Of a stretch of DNA of 64,000 nucleotides, positions 10,501 to 40,500 are shown piece by piece. Under the pieces are notes generated by a model, which saw only the letters and a list, made by a program, of their open reading frames with translations, was not told the DNA's origin and did not search any database. The position numbers and the translations under genes were made by a program. Position 1 is the first letter of the stretch. The number at the start of each line of letters is the position of its first letter. This DNA is from Malacoraja senta (Eukaryota). The stretch is from positions 13,456,001 through 13,520,000 of the forward strand of contig CM075988.1 of the NCBI GenBank assembly GCA_038087875.1, read 5' to 3'.

Positions 10501-13500
10501 GAAAACCCAGACGGTCACAGAGAGAATGTACAAACTTTGTACAGACAGCAACCTAAGTCAAGATTGGACCCAGGTCTGTTGTGCGGCGAGGCAGCAACTC
10601 TACCGCTGCGCCACAGTGTCACCCCGCCCGTCACTGCCACCCCGCTAAACCAGATTAATCAGGGCTGGACCAGTTTATTCAGAGTTTTACTGTGTTGCCA
10701 TAGAACATCACGGATGATGTGTGAACACTGGACATTCTTGGTCGCCTCTTCTAAAGTAGATGGATGAGGACTCGTCCAATTATTCATCATGTTGGTTCCA
10801 ACCCTTCCTTTTACAGATCTAATCTAGCTGATTTACCCTTCGTAACCTCACCAGCTTGTTCTGTGGTGGTACTGTCAAATCACTGTAGATGAGTCAAAAC
10901 ACAGGGTATAAAACTGGGAACAATAATGACAAAGTGCTGCAGTAATTCATCGGATCAGGCAACATCTCAGGAGGATATGAATAAGTGACGTTGCTGATCA
11001 GGACCCTTCTTCAGACTTTTGAACTGGTTTAGTCAATGTCTAGGAAGAGAGCAGTATTGGATGACTTGGTACTGAAGAAGGGTGCCGATCCGAAACATCA
11101 CTTAGTCACATTGAAGAGTCTCACTCAAAGTATATTGGGTGCTCTTGCTATTTTCATTGTGGTGGAGCATTGGCTTATCATCTAAGGCTGATGGTAATGA
11201 GGAGGCTTCTATACTATATTTGATCTGATGGCATGTGACTTCACGGGGTCCGGCATGGGTGTCAAAGACTCTCAGGTCAACTTATGGGGAGAAGGCAGGA
11301 GAATAGGGTTAGGAGGGAGAGATAGATCGGCTATGATTGAATGGCGGAGTAGACTTGATGGGCCGAATGGCCTATTTCTAGTATTCCTTATGACCTTTTC
11401 ACTCTTTCCTTCCTGGTTGCTGTTCGCTCTGGTTTTTCTGTTCTACCGATGAGACTCGATGCAATTGGGAATTATGATGGCGAGTCTGGTAACTTACTAA
11501 CAGAATCGTATCACACCATTTGAACAGGTACAGGATAGGAAAAATATTTAGTTTAGTTTTATTATTATTATTATTGTTGTCATGTTTACCGAGGTACGAT
11601 AAAGGTTTATTCTGTGGCATGCTATTGTGTCAGCGAAAATACTATGCATGATTACAATGTACACAGATACAGAATAATAGGTTAGGGTAGACGAAATGTT
11701 TAAGAAAGAACTGCAGATGCTGGAAAAATCAAAGGTAGATACAAATGTTGGAGAAACTCAGCGGGTGAAGCAGCATCTATGCAGCGAAGGAATAGGCGAC
11801 GTTTCGGGTCGAGACCCTTCTTCAGACTATTCCTTCGCTCCATAGATGCTGCCTCACCCGCTGAGTTTTCCAGCATTTTTGTCGACCCAGAATAATAGGT
11901 ACAATGTTTAGTGCAAGGTAAAGCATGATTAAAGATGCTTTGAAGGGCTCCAATGAGGTAGATGGGAGGTCAGGAATACTCTATAGTTGGTGACATGGCG
12001 GTTCAGATCCCTGGTAACATCTGGGAAGAAATTGGTGCTGAATCTGGAGGTATGCATTTTCAAACTTTTGTACCTCTTGCCTGATGGGAGAGGGGAGAAG
12101 ACGGAGTGACTGGGGTGAGACTGGTTCTTGATTATGCTAGTGGCCTTGCCAAGGTAGCGTGAAGATCAGGTCTGAAGAAGGGTCTCGACCAGAAACGTCA
12201 CCTTTCGGGTCGAGACCCTTCCTCAGTCTGATGTCGGAGTGCGCAGCACAGAGATAAAATGTAGTTGGAGACAGTAAGACTGGTCGGAGAACTGGGAAAT
12301 GGGAGGGGATGGAGAGAGAGAGAGAGAGAGAGGGAAAGCAAGGGCTACTTGAAGTTAGAGAAGTCAATGTTCATACCACTGGGATGTAAGCTACCCAAGC
12401 GAAATATGAGATGCTGTTCCTCCAATTTGCGCTTGGCCTCACTCTGACAACGGAGGAGGCCCAGGACAGAAAGGTCAGTGTGGGAATGGGAGTTAAAGTG
12501 TTTGATCAGTGGCTGCTGGTTTAGGATCATTTGCCGGGACTACCTGTGATTTTTCACTGAGTTGGGTCCCCAGCCACCAGTGACTGCAAAAGCATTTAAT
12601 TGTTTTTACATTCTCAATCGCAACCATTTAATACCCAACATCCTGGAATGGTATAGTAGCTGACGTCAATTAATAATCCTGAGAATAAGGAATGATGTTT
12701 GAGTTGTTTGCTAATTGGACTAAAGTGTGAAGCCTGCTCCCATGTCAGAGACTGGATGTGTGGCAAGCCTAACATTCTGGGGGTGTCATCTGGAGCACAA
12801 TAAACATCCTTGATCCTGGACAAGTGGAGATTGATGTGATTCCCTCCAGCTGTTTATTTTTTATAATGCCAGGGAAACATGTTTATGAGGTAGTATTTCA
12901 TATGGAGCAGCATAGGAGGAGGTGACCCATTAGTCCAGGTCAGGACATCCTGGAGCAAGCTAGTCAGCCCTACATCCTTCAAGTCCTCTAATTACTTTTG
13001 TTTAAGAACTTCTAATTTAAATGGTGCATTTCCTGAAGGCTTAGAACTTTCCAAAGTGAGCATTGAAATGAAATTGAGAATGGAACAAGCAGTTGAATAT
13101 GCAGAGTGCCTCCGCAAGGTGACATTGAGCAGGTGATCTACTTGAGGATGTTGGTGAAGGGCCATGAGCTTGTCACTCAGTGAGCAACTGGTGTGTCACC
13201 CGACTGTCTCTATTCATAAGCTCTAGGAGCAGAATTAGGCCATTCGGCCCATCAAGTCTATTCTGTCATTCAATCATGGATGATCTATCATTTCCCTCTC
13301 AACTCCATTCTCCTGCCTTCTCCCCGTGACCCCTGACACCCTTGCATATCAAGAATCTGTCAATCTCCACCATTCAAATATCCATTGACTTGACCTCCGT
13401 AGCCGTCTGTGGCAATGAATTCCACAGATTCATCGCCCTCTGACTAAAGAAATCCATCTATATTCATGGACATTATACACCAGATGTTTAGTCCTGCAAA

Positions 13501-19500: not shown

Positions 19501-22500
19501 AGTCAGTCTAAGTGAACTTTTGATATTTTGTATAATGCATTAGTGTCCATGTTCTTATTACAGGTATGTTCCATGGAACCTTCATGAGCCAGAGAGGGGG
19601 ACATTTAATTTTAAAGACGATAATGATCTTGAGTGAGTAGATAACATTTGTGTTTCCTGGTGGTTTTTATTTTTTGCAATGTTTCTTAAAAGCATTTCTT
19701 TACAGACAGTTGCTGAGCATCAATCACCCACTAGGGAAAGCACATCTCGGACCCGCTGACCTTCAGCATAGGAGCACCGCAAGACTGCGTACTCTCCCCT
19801 CCCCTTTACTCTCTCTACACCAACGACTGCACCTCCACATACTCCTCTGTCAAGCTTCTCAAGTTTTGCGGACGACATAAACTGATTTGTCTGATCCAGG
19901 ATGGGGAGGAATCTGCCTACAGACGTGAAGTGACGAAGCTGGTGTCCTGGTGCCATCGCAACAACCTGGAGCTCAATGCTCTTAAGACAGTGAAATTGAT
20001 TGTAGACTTTCGGAGAGCTCCCCCTCCCCTAACCCTACTCGCCATCAACACCACAGTCACATCTGTGGAGTCATTTAAGTTCCTTAAATGGGAGGCCGCC
20101 ATTGACTCCACAGTCAAAAAGGCCCAACAGAGGATGTACTTCCTGCGGCAGCTGAGAAAATACAATCTGCCACAGGCAGTGATGGTATAGTTTTATACTG
20201 CCAACATTGAGTCTGTCCTCACCTTCTCCATCATGGTTTGGCTCGGCCACCAAGCATGACATCTGGAGGCTGCAGTGCCTCGTTCGCTCAGCCGAGAAGG
20301 TTGTTGGCTGCAACCTACCACCCCCCCCTCAATGACGAACTGTACACGGCAAAGGCCAGGAAGTGAGTGGGTAAGATCATCTCTGACCCCTTTCACCCTG
20401 ACCGCAAACTCTTTGAAGCACTTCCCTCTGGAAGGCGACTCTGGACTTTTTTCCACGAGCAGTCGCTCTACTCAACAATCAAAAGTCTGTAGCCTCCTTT
20501 TGCTCTGGTATTGTATTTCATTTTTCACATCTCATGTTTTATTCTTAATTGTTTACTGTATTTCGTGTTAATTGCGAGCACAGCACCAAGACAACGCACC
20601 TTGTTTGTCTACATGGCTAATAAAATGTATTCAATATTCATCTTGATTGCTCAAAGAATGTGATGTTCCTTGCAGAATCTTGCCCATTGTAGCTTGTAAG
20701 ATTTTTGTTGCTGACTTCACACCATAGAGTAGTTTTGTGTTGGCACAGTGGTTAATACCTCAAAGCTCTGGAGACCTGGATTTGATCCAGGCTTTGTGCA
20801 GTGTTTACAAGTTCTTCCCCTGATACATGTGTTTTCTGTGTCCCATAGTCATGTTTATTGATAGGTTAATTGGCCACATTAATTTGCCCCCATCGTGTAG
20901 GAGATTTGGAGAACCAGAGTGTGGTTAATGGGAATGGGGGAGAATAAAATAGGATTTGTGTAAATAGGTGTCTGATGGTCCTGGAGGACAGAGAGGTCTG
21001 TTTCCATTGCTGTAATCCTCCAAGCATCACAGCTATTTCAAGAGGACTAGAATACAAAACCAGGGATGTAATGCTGTGGCTCTGAGGTGCTGGTCAGGCC
21101 ACATTTGGAGTATTGTAAGCAATTTTGGGTACCATATCTGAGGATGTGCTGGCTCTGGAGAGGGTCCAGAGGAGGTTTACAAGAATGATCCGAGTAATGA
21201 GTAGGTTAACCTATGATGAGCGCTTGTCGGCACTGCACCTGTACTCGCTGGAGTTTAGAAGAATGATGGGACACCTCATTGAAACATACAGAATAGTGAA
21301 AGGCTTGGAAAGAGTGGATGTGGAACGGATGTTTCCATTAGTGGGAGAGTCTAGGGCTAGAGGTTATAATCAGAATTAAAGGACGTTCCTTTAAGGAGGA
21401 GATGAGAAGGAATTTATTGTCAGATGGTGGTGAATCTGTGGAATTATTTTCCACCGAAGGCTGTGGAGGCCAAGTCAATGGATATTTCTAGGGCAGAGAT
21501 AGATTCTTGATTATTATGGGTGTCAGGGATAATGGGGAGAAGGCGGAGAATGGGGTTAGAAGGGAGAGGTAGATCAACCATGATTGAATGGCGGAATAGA
21601 CTTGATGGGCAGAATGGCCTCATTCTACTATTACTTATGACCTTATCTACCTGAGCTTGGAGAACAACAACCAATGATCAGAAGCCACCAGTGAGTGCAA
21701 GGATGTGGATATCACTTGGAAAGGCACCATTTTGTTAATTTGCTCCAAGTATAATACTTTCTTTTCTAGGGCCTATCTCAAACTAGCCAATGACTTGGAT
21801 TTATGGGTCATATTGCGCCCAGGACCATATATCTGCTCGGAGTGGGACCTTGGAGGTTTACCCAGGTAAATTTGAGAATCTTCTGCAGGACAAAGCAAAA
21901 TGGTTTTTGTAAAGGATTCATAATGAGGCATCTTTACTTTACTATCTTTATTCATACTGGAGCATTACACATTGCACTAGCTGTACGTGGTCTGTCACAG
22001 GAACTAGAGAGCGATCTGTGGGTGGGGAGGTTGTAGATATACTTGTGATATGGGGAGTGGTTAGTAGGTATGAGGTCACTATGTTAAAGGCACATGCATA
22101 TCTCATCTACAGTTTTCTTTAAAAAAAGACACCAAGTGCCTGAATAGCAGTTCTCAGCAGGTCAGGCAACATCTCTGAATAACATGAAGCAGGTGACGTT
22201 TCGGGTCGGAAACCCTCTTTAAGATTTAATTTACTAGTTGTGCAAATTGAGGGTAAATCTTTCTGAGCAATACCCATGTGAGCAATGTTTCCTTTGCTAA
22301 TAATAGATCTGTTCCCTTGCCATCAATGTTGGTGTAAATAGTCGAATCTAAATATAGGCTGCAGTATGTCCTCGAATAAGAATCAAAATATTGGTCTCAG
22401 ATGACCTTGTAAAGCTAGAATAGAAACCTTAATTAAATGTAATTAAAATGTACCACTAATGTAGTAATACTTTAGAATGGAATTTCCAAACATTCCTTTT

Positions 22501-25500
22501 TATGGTTTATTGTTCCTTACATAAATTCATTTAAAAGCAGGCAAAGTATAAAAGGTTAAATTTTGTTCTGCAAATGATGAATGGAAATTCTGCATCTATA
22601 ATGATTTATTATGGTGTCCTATGCTAGTACTGTAATTTCCATAGGTAGTCCTGAGTCAATGCTTTGAGAGTATTGTTCTACATACAGAAACAATATGCAA
22701 GGAGCTGCAGATGCTGGTTTACAAAAAATGACCTCCATCGTGATACCTGACATGCTGAGTTACTCTAGCACTTTTGTGTTTCACCAAGTTAGTATGTAGA
22801 TTTGCAAGTCATTGATGTGTATATTATATGCATAAGGGTGCATATCATCTCACCTTGGTTGACGACAAACAGATCTTGAGACAAGGCACTGCAGATGCCT
22901 GATTTCCAAAGCATCAGTGCAGGTGTAACTCAGCAGGTCAGGCAGCATCTCTGGAGAACATGGATAGGTGATGCTTCAAATTGGGACCCTTCTTCAGACT
23001 CATGAACTAGTTTAATCAATGTCTAGGAAGAAACCAGTATTGGCTGACTTAGTACTGGAATTATAGATTTGGATGCGTGGTAATTGGATATGTTGACACT
23101 CATAGAAGATAGACACAAAATGCTGGAGTAACTCAATGGGACAGGCAGCATCTCTGAATAGAAGGAACAGGTGACGTTCGTGCCAAGACCCTTCTTCAGA
23201 CCGAGGCTCGATCCGAAACGTCACCCATTCTTTCTATCCAGAGATGCTGCCTGTCCCGCTGAGTTACTAGGCATTTTGTGTCTATCTTCAATGTAAACCA
23301 GAATCTGCAGTTCTTTCCTACACAAGTTGACACTAACATGGCACTTTGTAAAATACAAATAAATGTCAGTCATAGCGCTTAAAACCTGTTTTTTGTTTTT
23401 TTTGCAAAAAAAAATTGCAGACCTTTCTTTAAAATATTAGTATTTTCCCAATGGTGGAATCTTACAGAAGAGTGTGATGTACTGCTGTCTCTATTTTGAT
23501 TGGTATAACTATATTTGGTTTAATTATGTTAATTGATAGAGCGGAAACTATAGATTTCAGGAATAAAGAGGATGGGTTATCAGAAATTATGATCTTTAGG
23601 TGAAGTGTTATTTAATTTCACTGTACTTATTTGATCTGTTCCCTTTTTAGTTGGCTGCTGAGAGACAGAAAAATGAAACTGCGCACGACGTATGCTGGTT
23701 TTACTGATGCAGTCAATTCCTTTTTCAATGTGCTAATTCCTAAGGTCCTCAAATTTCAGGTGAGTTAGGCCAATTCACGAGATCTTGCTGCACTATGGAT
23801 GTTCGGTGTCTCTAATAAGCATGGTTTATATTGCATTAGTTGGAAAGCTTCTTTTATCATGACTTGATTTTTATCAAATATGTTTCAACTTGGCAAGTTA
23901 ACCCTCTGGCAAACTATTTGATATGATCCAGAAAGTTGAAATGTCATACTTGTAGGTCAGAAGACATCATAAAAGAACATGTAATGCAGATGGTGAACAT
24001 CACTGAACTGATTTCCTGCCTCTTGGGTCTATACAGAACGTTACCTTTTAAAGTTAATTATGCTGAGGCAGAAGTCTGGTGACAATACTTTTAAGTCACT
24101 TATAAATTGCAAGGGTTTTTCTTTTATGTGAAGTATTGTGGTATTTAAATAGATTATGAACTCCGCTCCCCAGGAATCCACAGCTCCTTTATGAATCCAT
24201 ATTTCAAACTGAGACGAGTTTGGATTGATTGCTTTGATTTCTGGTTTCCTAGTATAGTAGGTATTATGAATATTGGTGCTAGTGGGTGGTTCTGGATAGA
24301 ACAGTCGACACTAGGTGCCATGCCTGTATGGTTGTGTTCTGCATCAGAAACACTGAGTCTGCAGTAGAGCACAGTCACACTGACTTACTACCTTCTGTAG
24401 AATGTCCCCATTCATTTAATAATCGGAAGCATTCAAAAACATTTTTTTTAAATGATCAGTTAACCAGGACAGTAGGGGTTGGCAGCAGCTGGGAACCAAT
24501 TAGTATGCGTGGAGCACTCTGCCTCATGTGTTGACTACAGAGTGTCCCAAAAGACTGCAAATGTTTATTGCTGTTGTACGGAGTAGACTTGAGGCAGGGG
24601 TTGGGTCAAGCATGGATCATTCCAATGTGCTCTTGGAAGCATGCACAGAAAGATGAGAAATAAGCCAGAATGGGCCTGAATATATCAAGGAACAGGCTAT
24701 CAAAGAGGAAATTAACTGCATTTGCCAATTATTTTTGGATGCACAGCAACACTTGCTAGCAGTATGTGCATTTGAAAGTTTCCACACCTTGTAATCTCAC
24801 TCCTTTATCCTCCCCATAAAGCAAGACCACCTTGGAACCCACATAGAACAGTACAGCACAGGAGCAGGCCCTTCAGCCCGCAATGTCTGTGTCGAACATG
24901 ATGCCAAGACCATCTCTCATCTCCGTCCCCATCCGTCCCCCCTCCGTCCCCATCTCAATGAGTTCCGTGCCCTCCATGACTTGGAACGCTTCTACCGTCG
25001 CCTCCGCCTCACAGCTCACTTCCATGGGAAGGAGTCCTCGCTCCCCACTGATGACCCCTTTTCCCGTCTCCAACGCACCCCATCCTCATGGAACCCCCCT
25101 CGTAGCCTTCCGGCTTTAGAACTCTTTATTAAAAACTGCCGCCGTGACATCAACCGCCTCAACTTCTCCACTCCCCTGTCTCACTCCAATCTCTCCCCCC
25201 CTGAACGCACTGCCATCGACTCACTCCGCAACAACCTAGATTGGGTTATCAAACCCGCCGACAAGGGAGGTGCCGTGGTAGTCTGGCGCGTCGATCTCTA
25301 CAAAGCTGAGGCCACGTGCCAACTCTCGGACACCTCCTCCTACTTACCCCTGGACCATGACCCCACTGACGAGCACCAGGCCACCATCTCCAGCACCATC
25401 ACCGACTTCATCCACTCCCACGCCCTGCCCGAACGAGCCTCCAACCTCATCGTTCCCCAGCCCCGCACAGCCCGCTTTTACCTTCTCCCCAAAATCCACA

Positions 25501-28500
25501 AACCTGACTGTCCCGGTAGACCCATTGTCTCTGCCTGTTCTTGCCCCACCGAACTCATCTCCACCTACCTCGACTCCATCCTATCCCCCTTGGTTAAATC
25601 CCTCCCCACCTATGTTCAAGACACCTCAGACACTCTCCGTCATCTCCGCGCATTCCACTCTCTAGGCCCTCACCCCCTCATCTTCACCATGGACGTCCAG
25701 TCACTGTACACCTCCATCCCCCACCAGGATGGTCTCGAAGCCCTCCGTTTTTTCCTCGACCGTAGAAGCAATCTATACCCGGCCACTGACACCCTCCTCC
25801 GCCTAGCGGAGCTGGTACTTACACTTAATAACTTTTCATTTGACTCCTCCCATTTCCTCCAAATACAAGGCGTAGCTATGGGCACACGCATGGGCCCCAG
25901 CTACGCCTGCCTCTTTGTCGGATACGTAGAACAATCCTTGTTCAATGCGTACCAGGGCCCCATCCCCGACCTCTACCTCCGCTACATCGATGATTGTTTT
26001 GGTGCCACATCCTGCACCCACACACAACTGACTGACTTCATCCGCTTCACCACCAACTTCCATCCGGCACTCAAATACACCTGGACCATTTCCGACACTT
26101 CCCTACCATTCCTTGACCTCACTATCTCCATCGCAGGTGATAGACTCCTTACCGACATCCACTACAAACCTACCGACTCCCATGGCTATCTGGACTACAC
26201 TTCTTCCCACCCTGCTTCCTGTAAGGACTCCATCCCCCACTCCCAATTCCTCCGTCTACGCCGCATCTGCTCCCAGGATGAGGCGTTCCACACCAGGGCA
26301 TCTGAAATGTCCTCATTCTTCAGGGAACGGGGGTTCCCCTCCTCCACCATAGATGAGGCTCGCACCAGGGTCTCTGCCATACCCCGCAACACTGCTCTCT
26401 CTCCCCATCCCCCCACTCACAACAAAGGCAGAGTCCCCCTAGTCCTCACCTTTCACCCCACCAGCCGTCACATACAACAAGTGATCCTCCGTCAGTTTCG
26501 CCACCTCCAACGTGACCCCACCACTCGCCACATCTTCCCATCTCCCCCCATGTCTGCCTTCCGCAAAGACCGCTCCCTCCGTAACTCCCTTGTCAATTCT
26601 TCCCTTCCCTCCCATACCACCCCCTCCCCTGGTACTTTCCCTTGCAACCGCAAGAGATGCAACACTTGTCCCTTCACCTCCCCCCTCCACTCCATTCAAG
26701 GACCCAAGCAGTCGTTCCAGGTGCGACAGAGGTTCACCTGCATCTCCTCCAACCTCATCTATTGCATTCGCTGCTCTAGATGCCAGCTGATCTACATCGG
26801 TGAGACCAAGCGGAGGCTTGGCGATCGTTTCGCCGAACACCTCCGGTCGGTCCGCAATAACCAACCTGAACTCCCGGTGGCTCAGCACTTCAACTCCCCC
26901 TCCCATTCCGTATCTGACCTCTCTGTCCGGGTCTCCTCCATGGCCACAGCGAGCAACACCGTAAATTGGAGGAAATGCACCTCATATTCCGCTTGGGCAG
27001 TCTACATCCTGGGGGCCTCAACATTGAATTCTCCCAATTCTGCTAGCCCTTGCTGTCCCCTCCCCTTCATCAGCCATCTGGTTGTCTCCTCCCCTCCCCC
27101 AGCCCTCGGGCTCCTCCTCCGCCTTTGTCCTTTTTTCCTTTCTTCTCCCCACCCCCTATCAGTCTGAAGAAGGGTTTCGGCCCGAAACGTTACCTATTTC
27201 CTTCGCTCCATAGATGCTGCTGCACCCGCTGAGTTTCTCCAGCATTTTTGTGTACCTTCGATTTTCCAGCATCTGCAGTTCCTTCTTTAACACTTTGTCT
27301 ACTCCACTGCGAAATCTCGTCAAGGTATGCCTACTTTGAAGAAGTTCTCCTCCTCTCTCCGGAGACTGTTCCACACCCAACTCTCTAACTGCCCCATCTC
27401 TGTGATCCCCCCTGCCCTCCAACTCTACGACCACATCCTTACCCAAACTCGATACCACAGCCACATCTGCTTCCTCGGGGCATGCCTGCGCCTCCATCTC
27501 ATACCTCATGGCTTCCAGCTCCAGTTCCCTACTTCCCAGTTCGGACCTCAGCCGGACTATCGGTACCGACTGGCTATCTACCGGCATACCCAACAATTCT
27601 CCACCCGGGCACTGAGATCCACACGGACTGCGATGCGCCGACACCAGCAGGACATCGCATTGACCCTCCCGGAACTTCGGGCCTCACTCACCCAGACCTG
27701 CAACGGTCCTCAACTATACTTTATCCGCCAGAAGATCCACCTCTTCAATAAAAGATTCCTGGCCCACCTCAACTCCACCAAGGACCTTAAATTAGCCCGC
27801 CTCCAGGCCGCTCCCGCCGCCGACTCTCCGCGACTCGACCGCCCGCAGGCTCCGGGCCCCAACTCCGGCCCGCATCGCGTGCCCCGGTCCCGCGACGCCA
27901 TCTTGTCCACGGGGAGCGCCTCCAGTACTCACCAGGACGCCATCTTGTCAACGGGGAGTGCATCCAGTACTCACCAGGACGCTGCCTTCACCGACCTCCA
28001 CGTCAATGCTGCCGCCGACCTTCACCTGCCTACCGATGACGCCCAGGCTCGCCGCTTCTACGGTAACTCAGACTTCCTTCCCCTCGCCGATTCCTCCGAA
28101 CCTCGCTGCCCCCCATGACCTCCTAACATCATCGCTGCACCGGGCCCATCCGACATCGCCGTCGCACTGGGCCCGCCGAACATCACAGCCGCACCCGGTC
28201 CTCCTAACATCGCCGCCGGACCGGGCCCATCCAGCATCGCCGCCGGACCGGGCCTACTCTACACGGCCGCCGGACCGGAGCTCCTCGAACATGGCCGCCG
28301 CACCGCACCCTATTCACCCCGTCTCCTCACCGGGCTGGTCGAACCGCGCCGCCCCACCTACCATCCGCCTACCGGGACGTCCCACGCATCGCCCGTGGAC
28401 CCCGACTCTACTGCCCATGGACCCCGACCATCGGATCCGCCGACCCTCGCCACTGCACCTCCCTCCAGCCCCACCGACTCCACTGCCTGAGGACCCCGAC

Positions 28501-31500
28501 CATCGGGTCCGCCGACCCTCGCCACTGCAACGCCCTCCAGCCCCACCGACTCCACTGCCCGAGGACCCCGACCATCGGGTCCGCCGACCCTCGCCACTGC
28601 AACGCCCTCCAGCCCCACCGACCCCGACTCTACTGCCCACGGACCCCGACCATCGGGTCCGCCGACCCTCGCCACTGCACCTCCCTCCAGCAGCCCGCAG
28701 CCGTCGCCTCACCTGCAAACTGGTCTCTGTACTGGGCCTGAAACCTCCACGCTGCTCACTCCCACTCTCCGGGGTTTGACTCCACTGGGTCCTAGCGCTA
28801 GTCTGCCTAGCCCTGGTTATCTCCGTGTTAGTTCCACTGATTCTTCCCCATCCCTCGCCAACTATGGGACCACTTCTCTTCCACACCCACACCACAGCCC
28901 TCTCACCCCCCCACCCCCTGACCACCCCCCACCCCCCCCACCACACATCGCCTCGTCCCCATTCCACCCACCTGCCTTCCTCCGGCCCCAACCCCCATCC
29001 CTGCCGGGTGTTCACCATCCCCCCCGACCTCCCCCTCTCCGACATCGAACGGTCTGTCCTCAGCAGAGGTCTTACCTTTGTCCCCCTCCGTCCCCATCTC
29101 AATGAGTTCCGTGCCCTCCATGACTTGGAACGCTTCTACCGTCGCCTCCGCCTCACAGCTCACTTCCATGGGAAGGAGTCCTCGCTCCCCACTGATGACC
29201 CCTTTTCCCGTCTCCAATGCACCCCATCCTCATGGAACCCCCCTCGTAGCCTTCCGGCTTTAGAACTCTTTATTAAAAACTGCCGCCGTGACATCAACCG
29301 CCTCAACTTCTCCACTCCCCTGTCTCACTCCAATCTCTCCCCCCCTGAACGCACTGCCATCGACTCACTCCGCAACAACCTAGATTGGGTTATCAAACCC
29401 GCCGACAAGGGAGGTGCCGTGGTAGTCTGGCGCGTCGATCTCTACAAAGCTGAGGCCACGCGCCAACTCTCGGACACCTCCTCCTACTTACCCCTGGACC
29501 ATGACCCCACTGACGAGCACCAGGCCACCATCTCCAGCACCATCACCGACTTCATCCACTCCCACGCCCTGCCCGAACGAGCCTCCAACCTCATCGTTCC
29601 CCAGCCCCGCACAGCCCGCTTTTACCTTCTCCCCAAAAATCCACAAACCTGACTGTCCCGGTAGACCCATTGTCTCTGCCTGTTCTTGCCCCACCGAACT
29701 CATCTCCACCTACCTCGGCTCCATCCTATCCCCCTTGGTTAAATCCCTCCCCACCTATGTTCAAGACACCTCAGACACTCTCCGTCATCTCCGCGCATTC
29801 CACTCTCTAGGCCCTCACCCCCTCATCTTCACCATGGACGTCCAGTCACTGTACACCTCCATCCCCCACCAGGATGGTCTCGAAGCCCTCCGTTTTTTCC
29901 TCGACCGTAGAAGCAATCTATACCCGGCCACTGACACCCTCCTCCGCCTAGCGGAGCTGGTACTTACACTTAATAACTTTTCATTTGACTCCCATTTCCT
30001 CCAAATACAAGGCGTAGCTATGGGCACACGCATGGGCCCCAGCTACGCCTGCCTCTTTGTCGGGTACGTAGAACAATCCTTGTTCAATGCGTACCAGGGC
30101 CCCATCCCCGACCTCTACCTCCGCTACATCGATGATTGTTTTGGTGCCACATCCTGCACCCACACACAACTGACTGACTTCATCCGCTTCACCACCAACT
30201 TCCATCCGGCACTCAAATACACCTGGACCATTTCCGACACTTCCCTACCATTCCTTGACCTCACTATCTCCATCGCAGGTGATAGACTCCTTACCGACAT
30301 CCACTACAAACCTACCGACTCCCATGGCTATCTGGACTACACTTCTTCCCACCCTGCTTCCTGTAAGGACTCCATCCCCCACTCCCAATTCCTCCGTCTA
30401 CGCCGCATCTGCTCCCAGGATGAGGCGTTCCACACCAGGGCATCTGAAATGTCCTCATTCTTCAGGGAACGGGGGTTCCCCTCCTCCACCATAGATGAGG
30501 CTCGCACCAGGGTCTCTGCCATACCCCGCAACACTGCTCTCTCTCCCCATCCCCCCCACTCACAACAAAGGCAGAGTCCCCCTAGTCCTCACCTTTCACC
30601 CCACCAGCCGTCACATACAACAAGTGATCCTCCGTCAGTTTCGCCACCTCCAACGTGACCCCACCACTCGCCACATCTTCCCATCTCCCCCCATGTCTGC
30701 CTTCCGCAAAGACCGCTCCCTCCGTAACTCCCTTGTCAATTCTTCCCTTCCCTCCCATACCACCCCCTCCCCTGGTACTTTCCCTTGCAACCGCAAGAGA
30801 TGCAACACTTGTCCCTTCACCTCCCCCCTCCACTCCATTCAAGGACCCAAGCAGTCGTTCCAGGTGCGACAGAGGTTCACCTGCATCTCCTCCAACCTCA
30901 TCTATTGCATTCGCTGCTCTAGATGCCAGCTGATCTACATCGGTGAGACCAAGCGGAGGCTTGGCGATCGTTTCGCCGAACACCTCCGGTCGGTCCGCAA
31001 TAACCAACCTGAACTCCCGGTGGCTCAGCACTTCAACTCCCCCTCCCATTCCGTATCTGACCTCTCTGTCCTGGGTCTCCTCCATGGCCACAGCGAGCAA
31101 CACCGTAAATTGGAGGAAATGCACCTCATATTCCGCTTGGGCAGTCTACATCCTGGGGGCCTCAACATTGAATTCTCCCAATTCTGCTAGCCCTTGCTAT
31201 CCCCTCCCCTTCATCAGCCATCTGGTTGTCTCCTCCCCTCCCCCAGCCCTCGGGCTCCTCCTCCGCCTTTGTCCTTTTTTCCTTTCTTCTCCCCACCCCC
31301 TATCAGTCTGAAGAAGGGTTTCGGCCCGAAACGTTACCTATTTCCTTCGCTCCATAGNNNNNNNNNNNNNNNNNNNNNNNNNNNNNNNNNNNNNNNNNNN
31401 NNNNNNNNNNNNNNNNNNNNNNNNNNNNNNNNNNNNNNNNNNNNNNNNNNNNNNNNNNNNNNNNNNNNNNNNNNNNNNNNNNNNNNNNNNNNNNNNNNNN

Positions 31501-34500
31501 NNNNNNNNNNNNNNNNNNNNNNNNNNNNNNNNNNNNNNNNNNNNNNNNNNNNNNNNNCACCGACCCCGACTACACTGCCCACGGACCCCGACCGTCGGGT
31601 CCGCTGACCCTCGCCACCGCACCTCCCTCCAGCAGCCCGCAGCCGTCGCCTTACCTGCAAACTGGACTCTGTACTGGGCCTGAAGCCTCCACGCTGTTCA
31701 CTCCCACTCTCCGGGGTTTGACTCCACTGGGTCCTAGCGCTAGTCTGCCTAGCCCTGGTTATCTCAGTGGCAGTTCCACTGATTCTTCCCCATCCCTCTC
31801 CAACTATGGGACCACTTCTCTTCCACACCCACACCACTGCCCTCTCACCCCCCCACCCCCTGACCACCCACCACCCCCCCACCACACATCGCCTCGTCCC
31901 CATTCCACCCACCTGCCTTCCTCCGGCCCCAACCCCCATCCCTGCCGGGTGTTCACCATCCCCCCCGACCTCCCCCTCTCCGACATCGAACGGTCTGTCC
32001 TCAGCAGAGGTCTTACCTTTGTCCCCCTCCGTCCCCATCTCAATGAGTTCCGTGCCCTCCATGACTTGGAACGCTTCTACCGTCGCCTCCGCCTCACAGC
32101 TCACTTCCATGGGAAGCAGTCCTCGCTCCCCACTGATGACCCCTTTTCCCGTCTCCAACGCACCCCATCCTCATGGAACCCCCCTCGTAGCTTTCCGGCT
32201 TTAGAACTCTTTATTAAAAACTGCCGCCGTGACATCAACCGCCTCAACTTCTCCACTCCCCTGTCTCACTCCAATCTCTCCCCCCTGAACGCACTGCCAT
32301 CGACTCACTCCGCAACAACCTAGATTGGGTTATCAAACCCGCCGACAAGGGAGGTGCCGTGGTAGTCTGGCGCGTCGATCTCTACAAAGCTGAGGCCACG
32401 CGCCAACTCTCGGACACCTCCTCCTACTTACCCCTGGACCATGACCCCACTGACGAGCACCAGGCCACCATCTCCAGCACCATCACCGACTTCATCCACT
32501 CCCACGCCCTGCCCGAACGAGCCTCCAACCTCATCGTTCCCCAGCCCCGCACAGCCCGCTTTTACCTTCTCCCCAAAATCCACAAACCTGACTGTCCCGG
32601 TAGACCCATTGTCTCTGCCTGTTCTTGCCCCACCGAACTCATCTCCACCTACCTCGACTCCATCCTATCCCCCTTGGTTAAATCCCTCCCCACCTATGTT
32701 CAAGACACCTCAGACACTCTCCGTCATCTCCGCGCATTCCACTCTCTAGGCCCTCACCCCCTCATCTTCACCATGGACGTCCAGTCACTGTACACCTCCA
32801 TCCCCCACCAGGATGGTCTCGAAGCCCTCCGTTTTTTCCTCGACCGTAGAAGCAATCTCTACCCGGCCACTGACACCCTCCTCCGCCTAGCGGAGCTGGT
32901 ACTTACACTTAATAACTTTTCATTTGACTCCTCCCATTTCCTCCAAATACAAGGCGTAGCTATGGGCACACGCATGGGCCCCAGCTACGCCTGCCTCTTT
33001 GTCGGGTACGTAGAACAATCCTTGTTCAATGCGTACCAGGGCCCCATCCCTGACCTCTACCTCCGCTACATCGATGATTGTTTTGGTGCCACATCCTGCA
33101 CCCACACACAACTGACTGACTTCATCCGCTTCACCACCAACTTCCATCCGGCACTCAAATACACCTGGACCATTTCCGACACTTCCCTACCATTCCTTGA
33201 CCTCACTATCTCCATCGCAGGTGATAGACTCCTTACCGACATCCACTACAAACCTACCGACTCCCATGGCTATCTGGACTACACTTCTTCCCACCCTGCT
33301 TCCTGTAAGGACTCCATCCCCCACTCCCAATTCCTCCGTCTACGCCGCATCTGCTCCCAGGATGAGGCGTTCCACACCAGGGCATCTGAAATGTCCTCAT
33401 TCTTCAGGGAACGGGGGTTCCCCTCCTCCACCATAGATGAGGCTCGCACCAGGGTCTCTGCCATACCCCGCAACACTGCTCTCTCTCCCCATCCCCCCCA
33501 CTCACAACAAAGGCAGAGTCCCCCTAGTCCTCACCTTTCACCCCACCAGCCGTCACATACAACAAGTGATCCTCCGTCAGTTTCGCCACCTCCAACGTGA
33601 CCCCACCACTCGCCACATCTTCCCATCTCCCCCCATGTCTGCCTTCCGCAAAGACCGCTCCCTCCGTAACTCCCTTGTCAATTCTTCCCTTCCCTCCCAT
33701 ACCACCCCCTCCCCTGGTACTTTCCCTTGCAACCGCAAGAGATGCAACACTTGTCCCTTCACCTCCCCCCTCCACTCCATTCAAGGACCCAAGCAGTCGT
33801 TCCAGGTGCGACAGAGGTTCACCTGCATCTCCTCCAACCTCATCTATTGCATTCGCTGCTCTAGATGCCAGCTGATCTACATCGGTGAGACCAAGCGGAG
33901 GCTTGGCGATCGTTTCGCCGAACACCTCCGGTCGGTCCGCAATAACCAACCTGAACTCCCGGTGGCTCAGCACTTCAACTCCCCCTCCCATTCCGTATCT
34001 GACCTCTCTGTCCTGGGTCTCCTCCATGGCCACAGCGAGCAACACCGTAAATTGGAGGAAATGCACCTCATATTCCGCTTGGGCAGTCTACATCCTGGGG
34101 GCATCAACATTGAATTCTCCCAATTCTGCTAGCCCTTGCTGTCCCCTCCCCTTCATCAGCCATCTGGTTGTCTCCTCCCCTCCCCCAGCCCTCGGGCTCC
34201 TCCTCTGCCTTTGTCCTTTTTTCCTTTCTTCTCCCCACCCCCTATCAGTCTGAAGAAGGGTTTCGGCCCGAAACGTTACCTATTTCCTTCGCTCCATAGA
34301 TGCTGCTGCACCCGCTGAGTTTCTCCAGCATTTTTGTGTACCATCTCTCATCTACCTGTGCATACTGGTCACTGTTAATCCCATGCATCCAAATGTTTCT
34401 AGATCAGCCTACCATTGAGGACTTTATCAAATGCCTTACTAAAATCCATACAAGTCAACATCCAATACCCTACCCACATCCATCACCTACATCACCGCGT

Positions 34501-37500
34501 TTGAACAAACTGTTTATAGCTACCATCCCAATATCATCATCTTCAGTTAATGCCCATTTATTTAATTGTATTGATGTACTTTGAGGAATACAATAGATGC
34601 AGAGTTGATTTACAAATGTTCTCTAAGGACGAGATCATAATATTAAACTCCTTGTCTGTTCAAACCTACAATTGACTCCAGGTACCTTATATAGCTCAGT
34701 GAACCACTCGATTGTATCCAATGACTAATGGTGGTGCTCCATAATTTCTCAGTGCAACTTTGACGGGCAACAAATGTCAAACTTCATTCCGTGAAAGGTT
34801 TCAAAAGGATGAAGACATTTAAGTTGCTGTTTACCTAGTTGAAAACTAAATCACACTTGACTATGATGGTGACAACAAAGCAATAGATTTTGCTGATGCA
34901 GTTGAAGGACAGTCAGTTGAATGCACAAGTGTCCCCAGTGAGAGGTCAAGTCCTCCAGGAATAGAGAAAATTGGGAAAAACAAATGAAATAAAGTGGTAA
35001 TATTATATTTAAACAGTAGATCATATTTTAACCTTGTGTTCTTCATTTGTAGTACAAAAATGGAGGTCCAATTATTGCTGTGCAAGTAGAAAACGAATAT
35101 GGTGGCTATGCCAAAGATGACAACTACATGGCTTACGTAAAAGAGGTAATATGGTTTTGTTTTCAATGTTTTGGAATTAAAATAATCAGGTGTAGTTTTT
35201 AAGTGGTGTTCCTTTTTTCCTCACTCCATTACAATCCACTGTTTTGATAATTAGGCAGGCAAAGTGACCTGGCACTAAGCTTGTGATAGCAAATCTCTCC
35301 TTTAGCAAATCTTTCTGGGACAGATGCGAAGTGATATTTAGTATTCTTTTACCCGTTCTCTTTTTCAGTTTAGTTTACAGATAACAGCGCGGAAACGGGC
35401 CCTTCAGCCCACCGATTCCGCACCGACCAGTGATCCCCACACACTAACACTATCCTACACACACTAGGGACAATTTACACTTATACCAAGCCAATTAGCC
35501 TACAAACCTGTATGTCTTTGGAGTGTGGGAGGAAACGAAGATCTCTGAGAAAACCCACACGGTCGCGGGTAGAGCGCGTATAAACTCCGTACAGACAGCA
35601 TCCGTAGTCAGAATCGAACCCGGGACTCTGGTGCTGTAAGGCAGCAACTGTATCATTGTTCCACCATGCTGCCCCATGTACTGTAATTACGGGGGGGGGG
35701 GGGAATGAGGTCAGGGGCCAAATGTTATTGTAGCTGCAAGCTTCTAGTTGGCATTGTGGATTTTGCTACATTTGAAATGTTGCACAAATCTTGATCTTGC
35801 CTCTGTAAATGATCAAACTCTGGTTACCTATTCATGGATACTTGGAAATAATGCACATTTCATTTTATGGGAACGTAACAATTTTTTCGGCATAAAGAAT
35901 TGATTCATTAATTGTAATGTTTCCCAGACAATGTCAAGTGGATGAAGGCTTCTCTGGAAAGTGTGAGCAAAGTGATGTCACAGATTTGCAATGCATGATT
36001 GTATTACTATTTCATGCAGTTACTGTTGATTTAAATTTATTATGGAACTAAAAAATTCAAGGTTAAATTACTAGACTTGTGAATTCTCCGCTTCTGGAGG
36101 AGAGCTGTGGTTAAGGAGTGTTTTGGGGAGAGGGGAAAGGGGAAGCACATTTTTTTGCGTGCTGATAGTCTAACCTGGTCAGTTGGTAAGCTTTACCAAT
36201 ACTGGTGACTTCTCAAGGATGTCTGACCAAAATTAAAGCATCTCCCTACTTGCTTCTTTATATGTGGAACCCAGCTAGTTCCAAATGTTCACAGAAATGA
36301 AATGTTGCTGGTGTAATCGTGGCAGAGTCAGTGAGTGATAATGATGCTTGGTTCAAAGTGGTATTTAAATATTTCTGTCCTGGATATATTGTTAACGTTA
36401 TTCCCGAGCAATCAGAAGTGTTGATGTATCTTTCCTGAAATTGTTTTAGGTTACTTCACGTGTCTGTTCTTCATCCACCTTGTGCTAATGTAACATATAA
36501 TATAAGAAAACATACAATATTCCACATATTTCACAAGGACAAATTGTTAGTAAGAGTCATACAGTGTGGAGTTGTGAGCTTCCAACAATATCTGGACTAA
36601 TTAGAATTGAAACAAGTGATTATTTTATTTTGCACATAAACTGGGGGCCATTCATTTCAGGACAATGTCAGCAGTACTAAGATTCAGACTAAAAATTGTT
36701 TCTGTTTTAATCCTGAAAGGCCTTGTTAAGCAGAGGGATAGTGGAGTTATTAATGACTTCCGATAACAAAGACGGATTAACTAAAGGATCCATTGCAGGA
36801 GGTAAGTGCTGACTTGGGGATTAGCGTAATGAATGATTTCATTAAAAAAAATTAATAATTATTGTGCAGGATTTACAAGCTGAAAAATAAATCATACCTC
36901 CACTGTTATACATAAAATGTAATTGGCTAATTTTTCTTACACACGCGCAATAGAAAGCTAGAAAATATGTTACTTGTAGACTAGGTTAATATAGTTTAGA
37001 GATACCGCGCGGAAACAGGCCCTTCGGCACACGGAATCTACGCCGACCAGCGATCCCCATTACACGAGCACACACTACACACTAGGGACAATTTACAATT
37101 CTTAACGAAGAAAATTAACCTACAAACTTGCACGTCTTTGGAATGTGGGTGGAAACGAGAGTAACCGGGGAAATTTCATGTGGCCACGGAGAGAACGTAC
37201 AAACTCCGTACAGAGAGCACCCGTAGTCAGGATCGAACCCGCTGTAAGGCAGCAACTTAAGTGCTGCGCTACCGTGCCGACTCACATTCTTGGCCAAATA
37301 GTCGGCTTATCTCCCTTTGCCTTAATATGCTTAGAATTAATTTATAGCATTCAGTATTGTTTCCCTGTAAAGTTATTTGAAAACGTGACTTCCTCTTTGT
37401 GTGACTGCTTTTCTATTGCATTTTGACATGTTTACAGTTTTACCGACTTTCAACTTTCAGAAGCTGGAATCTGGACTAATGTTAATGAAAGATCTAGAAG

Positions 37501-40500
37501 TAAGAAATTTTATTATCTTTGGACATGTAACATCATAGTTTGCAGAGCAGTGATCTCATGGTTAGTTATAGACATTGGTATGATGTATGAAGATCAACAA
37601 CAAAAATCAGCAAGGGGAAATTTGAAATGCAAACAAAAAGTTGGAAATACTCAGTAGGTCAGGCAGCATCTGTGGATGGTGAAATAAAGTTGATGTTTTA
37701 CAGTAAAGATTCTTTGTCAAAACTGGGAAGGAAAGAAAATAGAGCGGCACAATGGACTGCAAAGTGCTGGAGTAACTCGGCAGTAGATATAGCATATCTG
37801 GAGGGCATGGGTAGCTGCTGTTTTTTTTTAGTTGGGGCCCCTTCAGACTCAAATAAACTAGTTTCCAACTGCATGGAGGGTGGAGCGGGGCGAACTGGAT
37901 AAAGGAACTATCACTGAGAAGGTGAGGCCAAGGCTGCCGTCGGGATATGCTGTAAACAAAGTCATCTCATGGATAAATAAATAGGGGCTTGGATGGTAGA
38001 AGGGGAACATAATGTTTTGTTTGCAATATGTTGGGTTGTCTGAAGTGCCTTTCTCTCAGCAAGGGATGTAGAACTTCAGACTCCATTCTTCCCAATGAAC
38101 AAGGAGACAGCAGGAGCATAGGTTTTACATTATTATTCCTCTGGGTTTGGATAATCCTGACTGAAGTCTGTTTGTTCTCACTTATGAAAGAGGAGAGAAA
38201 TTGGCATCAGTACCTTGGGCTAATATGAATTTTAGAGAAAACTCAATTAGTCAAAACATTTAGTGATATTTATTTATCTGTTCATGATGAACAGAGTTTG
38301 GAGTTTTATCTTCGGAAGTCGAATAGCTGACAAGTTAGAAAAGAAGAATGGGAGACAAATTACCACAAAGACTTGGAATAGTGGAAAAGTACCGTGGCAG
38401 GAAATTGGTGCCTTCAAGAATGAAGGGAAGGAGATTTGATGTGAATAATTATGGTAATAGAAGGTGGTCTGACCAGTTGACCGTCAGCATTAATGCTTGT
38501 TCTTTAGGGAACAACTCTGTATTATAGTTTGCAAATTTTACACAATTTGCTAATTTACAATATTCCTCTGCAATCTTGTATCTGTTCTTTTTTCCTCAAT
38601 GTTTAGCCTGACAAACCTAAGATGGTAATGGAATACTGGAGTGGCTGGTTTGACCACTGGGGTAGCGGTCACCATGTCTATCGGGAAGGTATGTGATATT
38701 GTTGGAGTCCATCTTTTCATGCGCTTCATTTTCTTTCACTGGCCAAGTGATTTATTCTTGCCTCCTCTCTGGAATTCTCTTTCTGAGGCATTGTGGAGGA
38801 TAGATCACTGGAGGTATTTAAAGGATGTAAATAAATATTTGACATCTCTAAATTGCGATCCTTGTTGTACTGACAAAGACGAATAGTTGATGCCTCGAGC
38901 TTATCAGCCACTGAATAGCGAGACTGTCTTGAAGGGTCAGGCAAACTACTTGCGGTCCTATTCTTCAATAAAAGGTTGGAGTTGCTGATTGTTCATTGTT
39001 CGATTCGTTTGAAATTTTCTACAATCTGTGTCAAAAGAATGAGGTCCATGCATATCTCTGCCCTGAACAAAAAGTTACGGGCAGATTTTAAGACCAATCG
39101 TGGAAGTGCTCTTGGCTCACTGGTGATTTTTTTTCTTCTTCTTTTCCAATCTGTTATTCACTCGGCACAAACCAAATTTATAACAAGATTTTTGCCCCAA
39201 CCTGCATAAGAATGACGGTTTATGGTATCCCAATGGAATGCTCAGTCACCAGAGCAAATCTGACAGCCTAGGGCTATTCCAGATGAGAACAGCTATCAAT
39301 ACAATAGTCATTGGTTCTATATGATTGTAGGAAGCATTTTTAGATTTTCTGATGATGTGGTCACAAATGATAAGCAGGAAATAGTTTTTATTCATGCAAT
39401 ATCTTTCACAAAGACGAGATATTTCAAATCACTTTACATCCAGTCTTTAATGTAATGTAAAAAGTCAGAGCCATAGAGGAAAGTAGTGCAGAAACAGGGC
39501 CTTTGGCCCAAGTCCACACTAAGCATCAACCACCGATTCACACTAATATTTTATTAATCCCATTTGTAATTCTCTCCACATTCTCATCATCTCTGCTTCC
39601 CACATCCCGTCCTTCCCTGATTCTGCCACTCACATGTACACTTGGGGGCAATTTACAGTGGCTAATGTGTGTGGGAACCAGAGAAACCAGATGAGCCCAT
39701 GTGGTCATGGGGAGAAAATGCAAACCCCAGAAGACAGCACCCAAGGTTGGCATTGAACCCAGGTCTCTGGTGCTGTATGAATTCTTCCATGCCTTTTTTT
39801 TTTTTTTACAAATGTTGACTTTAAACTAAGTGGATTTGCTTTCACAATTTTGTTGTTATGTGAGTTTTAAAAGGCTATTCTTTCAAGGGACAATAAGAGT
39901 TAAAAGACAGCTGGAAATGGAAGTGATGAAAGCAAACAATTGGGTTTAATACAGAGGAAAGACTGATTTGTGTGCACAAATCTCCATTGAATCTTGGAAG
40001 TTGCTGTCCACATAGCTTTGGGGAAATAAATGAAGAGAGTTAAAAGAGGCATCAAGTATGATGGTATAGATAAAATGGGCAAAGTCAGGCATTATTCTAA
40101 CTGGACCACTCAACGTTGGAAGGTTGCTGTGGATAAACCTTGTCAACAAACAACCATTTATCCTCCTCCAGAAACTTTCTCTTTTCAAATGTACACTCTA
40201 TAATTCAGTAGCTGTGTGTAAGTTTTTCTGTTAATCTTCCTTCGCACGTTGTATGTACCAAACACCTCTGTACATTAGGAGCATATTATATTTGAGCCTT
40301 AAGATATGTTTCTGTTCTATATTGTTTGCTGAGATTTTAGACTTTTTTTTCCTACTGCAGGATTGCTCAATACTCTTTCGGCTCTTTTAAGCAAAGGAAT
40401 TTCCATCAATCTCTACATGTTCCATGGAGGGACTAACTTTGGCTTTATGAATGGGGCACAAGACTTTGGCACCTATATTGCTGATGTCACCAGCTATGGT

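Follow-up and report, generated by a model that had tools for sequence, protein, structure and literature searches.

A young, broken tandem insertion of a Penelope-like retrotransposon in the skate Malacoraja senta, and possible repeated copying of one RNA in its family

How can one insertion of a retrotransposon hold more than one unit of the element between a single pair of target-site duplications (TSDs)? The question is raised by a stretch of 64,000 nucleotides of the skate Malacoraja senta (GenBank assembly GCA_038087875.1, contig CM075988.1, positions 13,456,001 to 13,520,000, forward strand), referred to below as the window, which carries head-to-tail units of a Penelope-like element (PLE) with hammerhead-like motifs. 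Partial tandems, tails and hammerheads in pseudo-long terminal repeats (pLTRs) are canonical for PLEs (PMC8557442, PMC3846280). Cleavage, circle formation and more-than-unit copying were proposed in 2014 by Cervera and de la Pena (PMC4209133), and the cleavage-circle model was repeated in a review (PMC6765202); the circle model is thus a published hypothesis and not a new one. According to PMC2377424 there is no obvious mechanism of pLTR regeneration, and both the regeneration of partial tandems and the role of the hammerhead are stated as open there and in PMC8557442.

The stretch is one young, now broken insertion of an endonuclease-bearing PLE of a very abundant family. It belongs to a known class, to which it adds a new but broken member, and by itself it settles nothing on mechanism. 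The best explanation, to which we assign a probability of roughly 45%, is that a monomer cut by the hammerhead was closed into a circle and copied more than once by the reverse transcriptase (RT). The broader proposition, that one template was copied in several passes after priming at a GIY-YIG nick and an internal start, appears probable. The original prediction, made from the letters of the window, had proposed more-than-unit copying in one event, and this is backed by the family as a whole, but not by the third unit at this locus. Below, +n and -n give distances from the place where the hammerhead is predicted to cut, just behind window 27191 (27192 being +1), L001-L310 denote stretches of the window's own assembly, and the features of the insertion are listed in Table 1.

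The insertion has a target duplication, a tail and a partial-tandem layout. Both copies of the 14-bp direct repeat, ACCATCTCTCATCT, were found where they had been predicted, and no break was seen between units 1 and 2, the sequence running on into a 135-nt leader and then the ATG at 27327. Three near-identical units had also been announced. Near-identity was borne out, with 5 substitutions and 4 indels between units 1 and 2 and 8 substitutions and 3 indels between units 1 and 3, over the shared 2.27 kb in each case, but only one unit is full-length and the third is unproven behind a gap. Similarly, the exact 28-nt motif does recur at 27164, 31308 and 34250, but the claimed period of 4,144 bp is true of the first interval only, the second being 2,942 bp with a 200-N gap. 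The gap follows the end of unit 2 (31335) after 22 bases, and unit 3 is without its first ~1.4 kb. The notion of an autonomous cycle at the locus had to be abandoned: comparison with an intact relative revealed frameshifts in all three units (in unit 1, one of 1 bp at 26928), the reading frame of unit 2 ends after 263 amino acids, and 0/3 units have an intact frame. Since all three are broken, the locus is not autonomous.

The RT and GIY-YIG motifs and the linker CNRKRCNTC (CX4CxxC) were present in the window units, as claimed, and an alignment showed that DKG, this linker and the C-C-H-H residues are all conserved. Five intact single open reading frames (ORFs) of ~1,210-1,290 amino acids were found among 15 stretches scanned; in the intact 1,238-residue relative L045, RVT_1 (6.6e-6) and GIY-YIG (1.5e-3) were detected, both below the Pfam curated cut-offs. 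Scoring of 8,000 candidates gave 1,686 relatives of the intact protein, the top named ones coming from sharks and rays (63-73% identity), and a PDB sequence search gave no match. A TSD of 11-14 bp was seen at 10 of 14 other loci checked. With a single ORF encoding RT and carrying GIY-YIG at its C-terminus, a pLTR, a tail and a TSD, the element is an endonuclease-bearing PLE. It is probably of Neptune type, as judged from its linker and CCHH residues, the clade being assigned by exclusion and the homologues carrying no clade labels. The CX2-5CxxC linker is common to Neptune and Nematis and absent from Poseidon (PMC8557442), which excludes Poseidon but not Nematis; as only Neptune and Poseidon were found in vertebrates (bioRxiv 10.64898/2026.07.22.740005), Neptune is retained. 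Penelope-like identity, a Neptune-type linker and a minimal hammerhead anatomy, all part of the original prediction, therefore hold.

The family resembles the endonuclease-bearing Neptune-type PLEs described by Craig et al. 2021 (PMC8557442) in its single ORF with DKG, RT, CX2-5CxxC linker and C-terminal GIY-YIG with C-C-H-H, as well as in its 5'-truncated partial tandems, inverted 5' pieces, optional tail of 30-40 bp and pLTR hammerhead. Unlike the elements of that paper, the skate ORF of ~1,210-1,290 residues has a long Pro/Thr/Ser-rich repeat region, and the TSDs of the family, 11-16 bp long, lie at ordinary sites and not at a microsatellite target. The internally repeated Pro/Thr/Ser-rich region is placed between the N-terminal domain and the RT (window ~28090-28920, L045:3530-7243), varies in length among copies and is in frame in the intact ones. 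The exact 28-nt motif has 19,101 copies in the assembly, versus 0 for a reversed control, and the 30-mer ending at the ATG occurs 349 times.

Support for repeated copying of one template comes from comparisons within and between insertions. For 74 copies at 33 loci, repeats lying within one insertion disagreed in 21 of 797 non-CpG lineage-diagnostic comparisons (2.6%), whereas copies at different loci disagreed in 16,923 of 46,456 (36.4%). Most differences within a locus were private (261/289), and only 14 of 233 distinct ones recurred at a second locus. In only 10 of 49 pairs, with 9 ties, was the partner at the same locus closer than the single closest copy from elsewhere, because the youngest lineage is near-identical across loci.

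The joints between repeats were equally informative. About 40 of the first 100 ATG-region matches lay in short tandem groups, with differing unit lengths. A survey of 60 fetched ATG-bearing stretches and two arrays yielded 33 loci with a short joint, leading from a position x downstream of the tail to a position y near the hammerhead, and at 11 loci one joint was repeated 2-13 times. Within the TSD-flanked insertions at L216, L217, L228 and L188, a stretch shorter than two units contains the joint twice. Such insertions cannot arise by local tandem amplification, because removal of one unit takes away the repeat that amplification would need. Two arrays consist of 13 units of 384 bp (11-bp TSD, +68 tail, ~22 bp terminal overlap, one 1-bp variant) and of 14 units of 408 bp (11-bp TSD, +71 tail, 218 bp terminal overlap). 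The joint of each had 13 matches, all inside its own array and nowhere else in the assembly, in which no parental dimer of either array was found. The mini-arrays share 96-100% identity with the intact autonomous family; every one has a joint that is its own, and a TSD and a PLE tail are present in most. Since each of the two joints tested is confined to one locus, these arrays look like by-products of single events and not like spreading families. Back-splicing was set aside as a source of these joints, which are without GT-AG.

Retrozyme-like arrays of 219-408-bp units, again with a joint of their own and mostly with a TSD and a PLE tail, were seen at L031:2712-8315, L032/L033 (C1:28.90 Mb, C1 being a contig), L225, L223, L230, L196 and L228. 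A TSD-flanked insertion at L034-L035 (C1:62.70 Mb) contains two copies of a 2.1-kb unit that has two deletions, along with a partial one; a joint check of its two deletions gave one anchor each. Animal non-LTR retrozymes are likewise tandem, hammerhead-bearing units of 150-450 bp related to PLE pLTRs, and one chondrichthyan has already been reported to have them (PMC7229834, bioRxiv 10.64898/2026.07.22.740005). The window differs from them in that its unit is a 4.1-kb coding element and not a short non-coding one; the derived arrays elsewhere do fit. Mobilization of retrozymes by PLEs was proposed in PMC7229834 and is supported by the bioRxiv study, which favors local amplification; the skate family offers another way than local satellite growth for an autonomous PLE to give rise to retrozyme arrays. 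The family is young and holds several intact ORFs besides ~19,000 copies of the hammerhead, and its measurable signatures (repeats that match in lineage, private joints that recur within a locus and a 5' stop skipped by full-length copies) make circle and template-jump models testable in a vertebrate. A literature search, sparse in subscription papers, found no test of within-insertion identity or of repeated joints in a PLE, and nothing on the mechanism of chondrichthyan PLEs.

We turn to the hammerhead. Motif 1 is made up of CUGAAGA, a bulged A, a 4-bp stem II with a UUCG loop, GAAA, the palindromic ACGU and a 2-bp stem I. The combination of core boxes, bulge, G-C closed stem II and palindromic stem III was found 137 times in 593 kb versus 0 times in one shuffle. 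Among these instances, stem II was paired in 92-96%, two pairs of stem I in 81-85% and the third in 11%. The fold is compatible with three subfamily-level changes (U-A/U-G in pair 4 of stem II and pair 1 of stem I, and C/U at position 17); the common changes were all one-sided and no double compensation was seen. As in the minimal metazoan PLE hammerheads of PMC4209133, there is an extra base between 9 and 10.1, a G10.1-C11.1 pair, a palindromic 15.2/16.2 and no helix III. The skate stem I has 2 bp, as the same paper gives for D. virilis, stem II has 4 bp and the triplet of the young subfamily is GUU. Short ends of an older subfamily, with a GGGUCUCGACCC stem II and a GUC triplet, occur in both orientations at window 958, 11825 (minus strand), 42199 and about a dozen more sites.

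To assess the ends of insertions, 59 motif arms were sampled in the 53 stretches fetched first from contig C1; about 20 of these arms were called short owing to subfamily mismatches. The 3' ends clustered near +63..+72 and +93..+104. In the anole Poseidon element PAc (Frangieh et al. 2024, PMC11167929), two clusters of 3' ends downstream of the hammerhead similarly define the tail, as would result from two internal RT starts; by analogy, the skate RT may start at its own clusters, the window insertion ending in the first one. Unlike in PAc, the skate hammerhead and tail lie upstream of the ATG with its 135-nt leader, and the linker zinc finger is present.

At the 5' side, 32 of the 59 arms stopped before the pyrimidine tract upstream of the motif, nearly all of them at -28..-34, and a non-template base at -32 was found in 1,980 motif copies genome-wide (with a looser, one-letter filter). 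The TCAGT at the -31 stop resembles an initiator. The extra base before -31 was G in 38, A in 35 and T in 27 of the first 100 of these 1,980 copies (read by eye, p ~0.06), so that a cap signature is only suggestive. A splice acceptor, made of the pyrimidine tract and CAG, was set aside as an explanation of the -30 stop: the AG is retained in many 5' ends and joints, and no shared upstream exon appears. Full-length copies behaved differently from random arms, as 0/22 ended at -27..-36 versus 32/59 arms stopping before the tract (Fisher p 1.5e-6). Most ran 200-2,460 nt beyond the junction, and two stopped within 4 nt of the cut. Full-length copies thus need a template without the -31 end. Recurrent 5' ends were also noted near -348 (L036, L086, L098, L111, L049, L210) and, in others, near -205, on first and second passes; they could be extra start sites or mere RT stops. 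An empty-site test through other copies of the host repeat gave 0 adjacent pairs.

Two of the 33 short joints lie at +1/+2 and belong to arrays without a hammerhead core, L227:2745-3413 and L216:3340-3613 (reoriented coordinates); no TSD was found for the L227 array. That these two arrays start at the cut suggests that cutting happens at times.

We propose the following sequence. The RT would be primed at a nick made by the GIY-YIG endonuclease and would start internally, at +63..+73 or +93..+109 (for the window insertion, ~65 nt downstream of the hammerhead motif), to run over the joined ends of one RNA and so copy it more than once. For full-length units, the most likely join would be that of a monomer cleaved at each of its two hammerheads and then circularized, whose junction the RT would cross without a seam before falling off at variable distances. 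A second, commoner pool of RNA would start ~31 nt upstream of the cut and stay uncut, giving rise to thousands of solo ends of 95-135 bp and to imprecise jump products. Short end-joined fragments would yield the TSD-flanked, retrozyme-like arrays of up to 14 units in single events, with no prior genomic donor. This division of labor between an uncut pool and a cut, end-joined pool that makes seamless full-length multimers is tentative; if it holds, the family would be a natural archive of the way in which PLEs rebuild their tandems.

Several observations weigh against cleavage and circle formation. Stem I has just 2 bp, next to a GUU triplet. The motif region folded no better than shuffles (z -0.02 and -0.30); such a result is expected for a monomer of a dimer-dependent motif, yet it provides no support in itself. 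An Rfam search of window 20000-40000 returned no hammerhead family and four unrelated weak matches. Around the cut, counts of 5' ends with two-letter exclusions were 245 at -4 (possibly inflated by amplified variants), 201 at +1, 102 at +5 and 37 at +13, with no sharp peak at the cut. A script detected a clear TSD at only 3-4 of 30 '+1' loci, and none of 26 duplications of the hammerhead core joined exactly at -1, all including at least the +1 base. As 5' ends pile up ~30 nt upstream without a sharp peak at the cut and 0/26 core duplications join at -1, the dominant template boundary lies upstream of the ribozyme and not at the cut. In the anole PLE, the only one purified, mutation of the hammerhead left in vitro insertion unaffected, and the cut was not the end point of any RNA-seq read (PMC11167929). 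The joints themselves are often irregular: 14 of the 33 short joints have extra bases, 9 of 19 blunt ones show microhomology of at least 2 bases, and the two joints of L224 differ. In the 408-bp array, one CpG change is common to 4 of 13 units, which suggests some later amplification or conversion there. At the window locus, finally, unit 3 is chimeric and lies beyond the gap, its first 315 bp being 100% identical to copies at 4 other loci. Cleavage after GUU into 4.14-kb monomers, as originally envisaged, is accordingly only weakly supported by the patterns seen in the family: the cut has no sharp peak of 5' ends to set against the 1,980 copies at -31.

We considered the possibility that, whatever the mechanism, the third unit is an artefact, the true insertion consisting of a partial copy, one full unit and the tail, with 'unit 3' being the other haplotype's unit 2 duplicated across the gap. 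We regard this as quite possible. There is a 200-N gap, and the contig behind it opens with 315 bp from another sub-lineage, which leaves the third unit unproven at the locus; the matching region of unit 2 reached at best 97.7% identity among 39 full matches to fetched copies, and the remainder of unit 3 clusters with units 1 and 2. A rare C7 run is found in units 2 and 3 and not in unit 1, being carried by 3 of 52 other copies. No ~4-kb spacing was seen among the first 100 of the 349 ATG-region matches, and none of the assembled contigs checked runs across the whole array. Yet units 2 and 3 share no derived substitution relative to unit 1, the differences being star-like, the TSD copies match on both sides of the gap, and a gap-free insertion with two full units and a partial one exists on a 70-kb contig (C562), without a clear TSD. 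The depths of the flanking contigs in run X1 (30 on the left versus 52.8 on the right) gave a weak hint of heterozygosity that we did not count as evidence.

The repeated copying might also proceed without any cleavage. The template would then be a linear, terminally redundant RNA, the cDNA reaching its 5' end would realign on the downstream copy or jump by microhomology, the template thereby behaving like a circle, and the hammerhead would be a structural or passenger motif. The strong 5' stop at -28..-34 is in keeping with this, and 10 of the 33 short joints use it (y = -24..-36); so are the imprecise joints and core stutters, the recurrence of ends near -205 and -348 on both passes, and the dispensability of the hammerhead in vitro in the anole PLE (PMC11167929). 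Indeed, a circle is not required, since the RT evidently jumps on linear RNA, as indicated by the joints with extra bases and the differing joints of L224. However, if the RNA began at -31, many full-length copies should end at that point; 0/22 do, so that further upstream start sites are required; a linear RNA starting further upstream, combined with homologous realignment, fits the full-length copies too. A jump that is often imprecise would also hardly produce thirteen identical joints in a row, and in two arrays the unit begins at the cut. We find copying without cleavage rather unlikely, though a strong competitor, and the copying of a cut and closed monomer less unlikely.

In L261-L280, the 33-37-nt hammerhead core forms two to four head-to-tail stutters, joined from +1..+7 to about -24..-34. 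These stutters join the two strands that pair in stem I, which is reminiscent of, and might reflect, a telomerase-like realignment.

Plain read-through, in which tandem donors already present give long linear transcripts that are copied a single time and mini-arrays grow later by unequal crossing-over, is very unlikely. In its favor, partial tandems are regarded as the unit of transcription (PMC2377424), bioRxiv 10.64898/2026.07.22.740005 puts forward local amplification, the 408-bp array has its shared CpG variant and 218-bp terminal overlap, and host read-through is possible because the window array sits in a sense intron. Against it, upstream and downstream copies remain lineage-matched, just 14/233 distinct differences within loci are seen again at a second one, at four loci a joint is crossed twice over less than two units, and daughter insertions could never exceed the length of their donor.

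Table 1. Coordinates of the insertion, its parts and the downstream host exon in the window.
Feature	Position	Strand	Remarks
Left TSD copy, 14 bp ACCATCTCTCATCT	24909..24922	+	direct repeat comparison
Short stutter copy of the element's own 5'-junction sequence	24923..24938	+	read from sequence
Unit 1, 5'-truncated, ~2.25 kb	24923..27191	+	RT, linker, GIY-YIG, 3' untranslated region, hammerhead 1
Family-wide main 5' stop, initiator-like TCAGT	27158..27164	+	-34 to -28 from cut; possible transcription start
Hammerhead motif 1	27162..27193	+	predicted cut after 27191
Unit 2, sole full-length unit	27192..31335	+	4,144 bp from cut site to cut site
Unit 2 single ORF, broken	27327..31190	+	stop 28116-28118; frameshifts near 28936, 29635, 30551
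Hammerhead motif 2	31306..31337	+	
Assembly gap, 200 N	31358..31557	.	22 bases after the end of unit 2
Unit 3 as assembled, 3' 2.7 kb, frameshifted	31558..34277	+	third pass or duplicate of unit 2
Unit 3 start, identical to a different sub-lineage	31559..31873	+	template switch or contig-end misassembly
Hammerhead motif 3	34248..34279	+	
3' tail, end at +62 to +65	34278..34342	+	last 3 bases common to TSD; fits first 3'-end cluster of family
Right TSD copy, 14 bp ACCATCTCTCATCT	34340..34353	+	
Host GH35 beta-galactosidase-like exon	35051..35146	+	

Older, frameshifted relics of a related Penelope-like family were found on the minus strand of the window at 5723-7906 and 12351-12512, with 54-73% protein identity to an intact copy. 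The insertion is intronic and in sense orientation, as it is flanked by exons of a GH35 beta-galactosidase-like host gene, the preceding one reading from about 23652. Host exons of this type were recognized on the plus strand across window 18689-40500, at about 18689, 19565, 21813, 23652, 35051, 38646 and 40411, and through the array one GH35 intron has gained 9.4 kb and three hammerheads in sense orientation.

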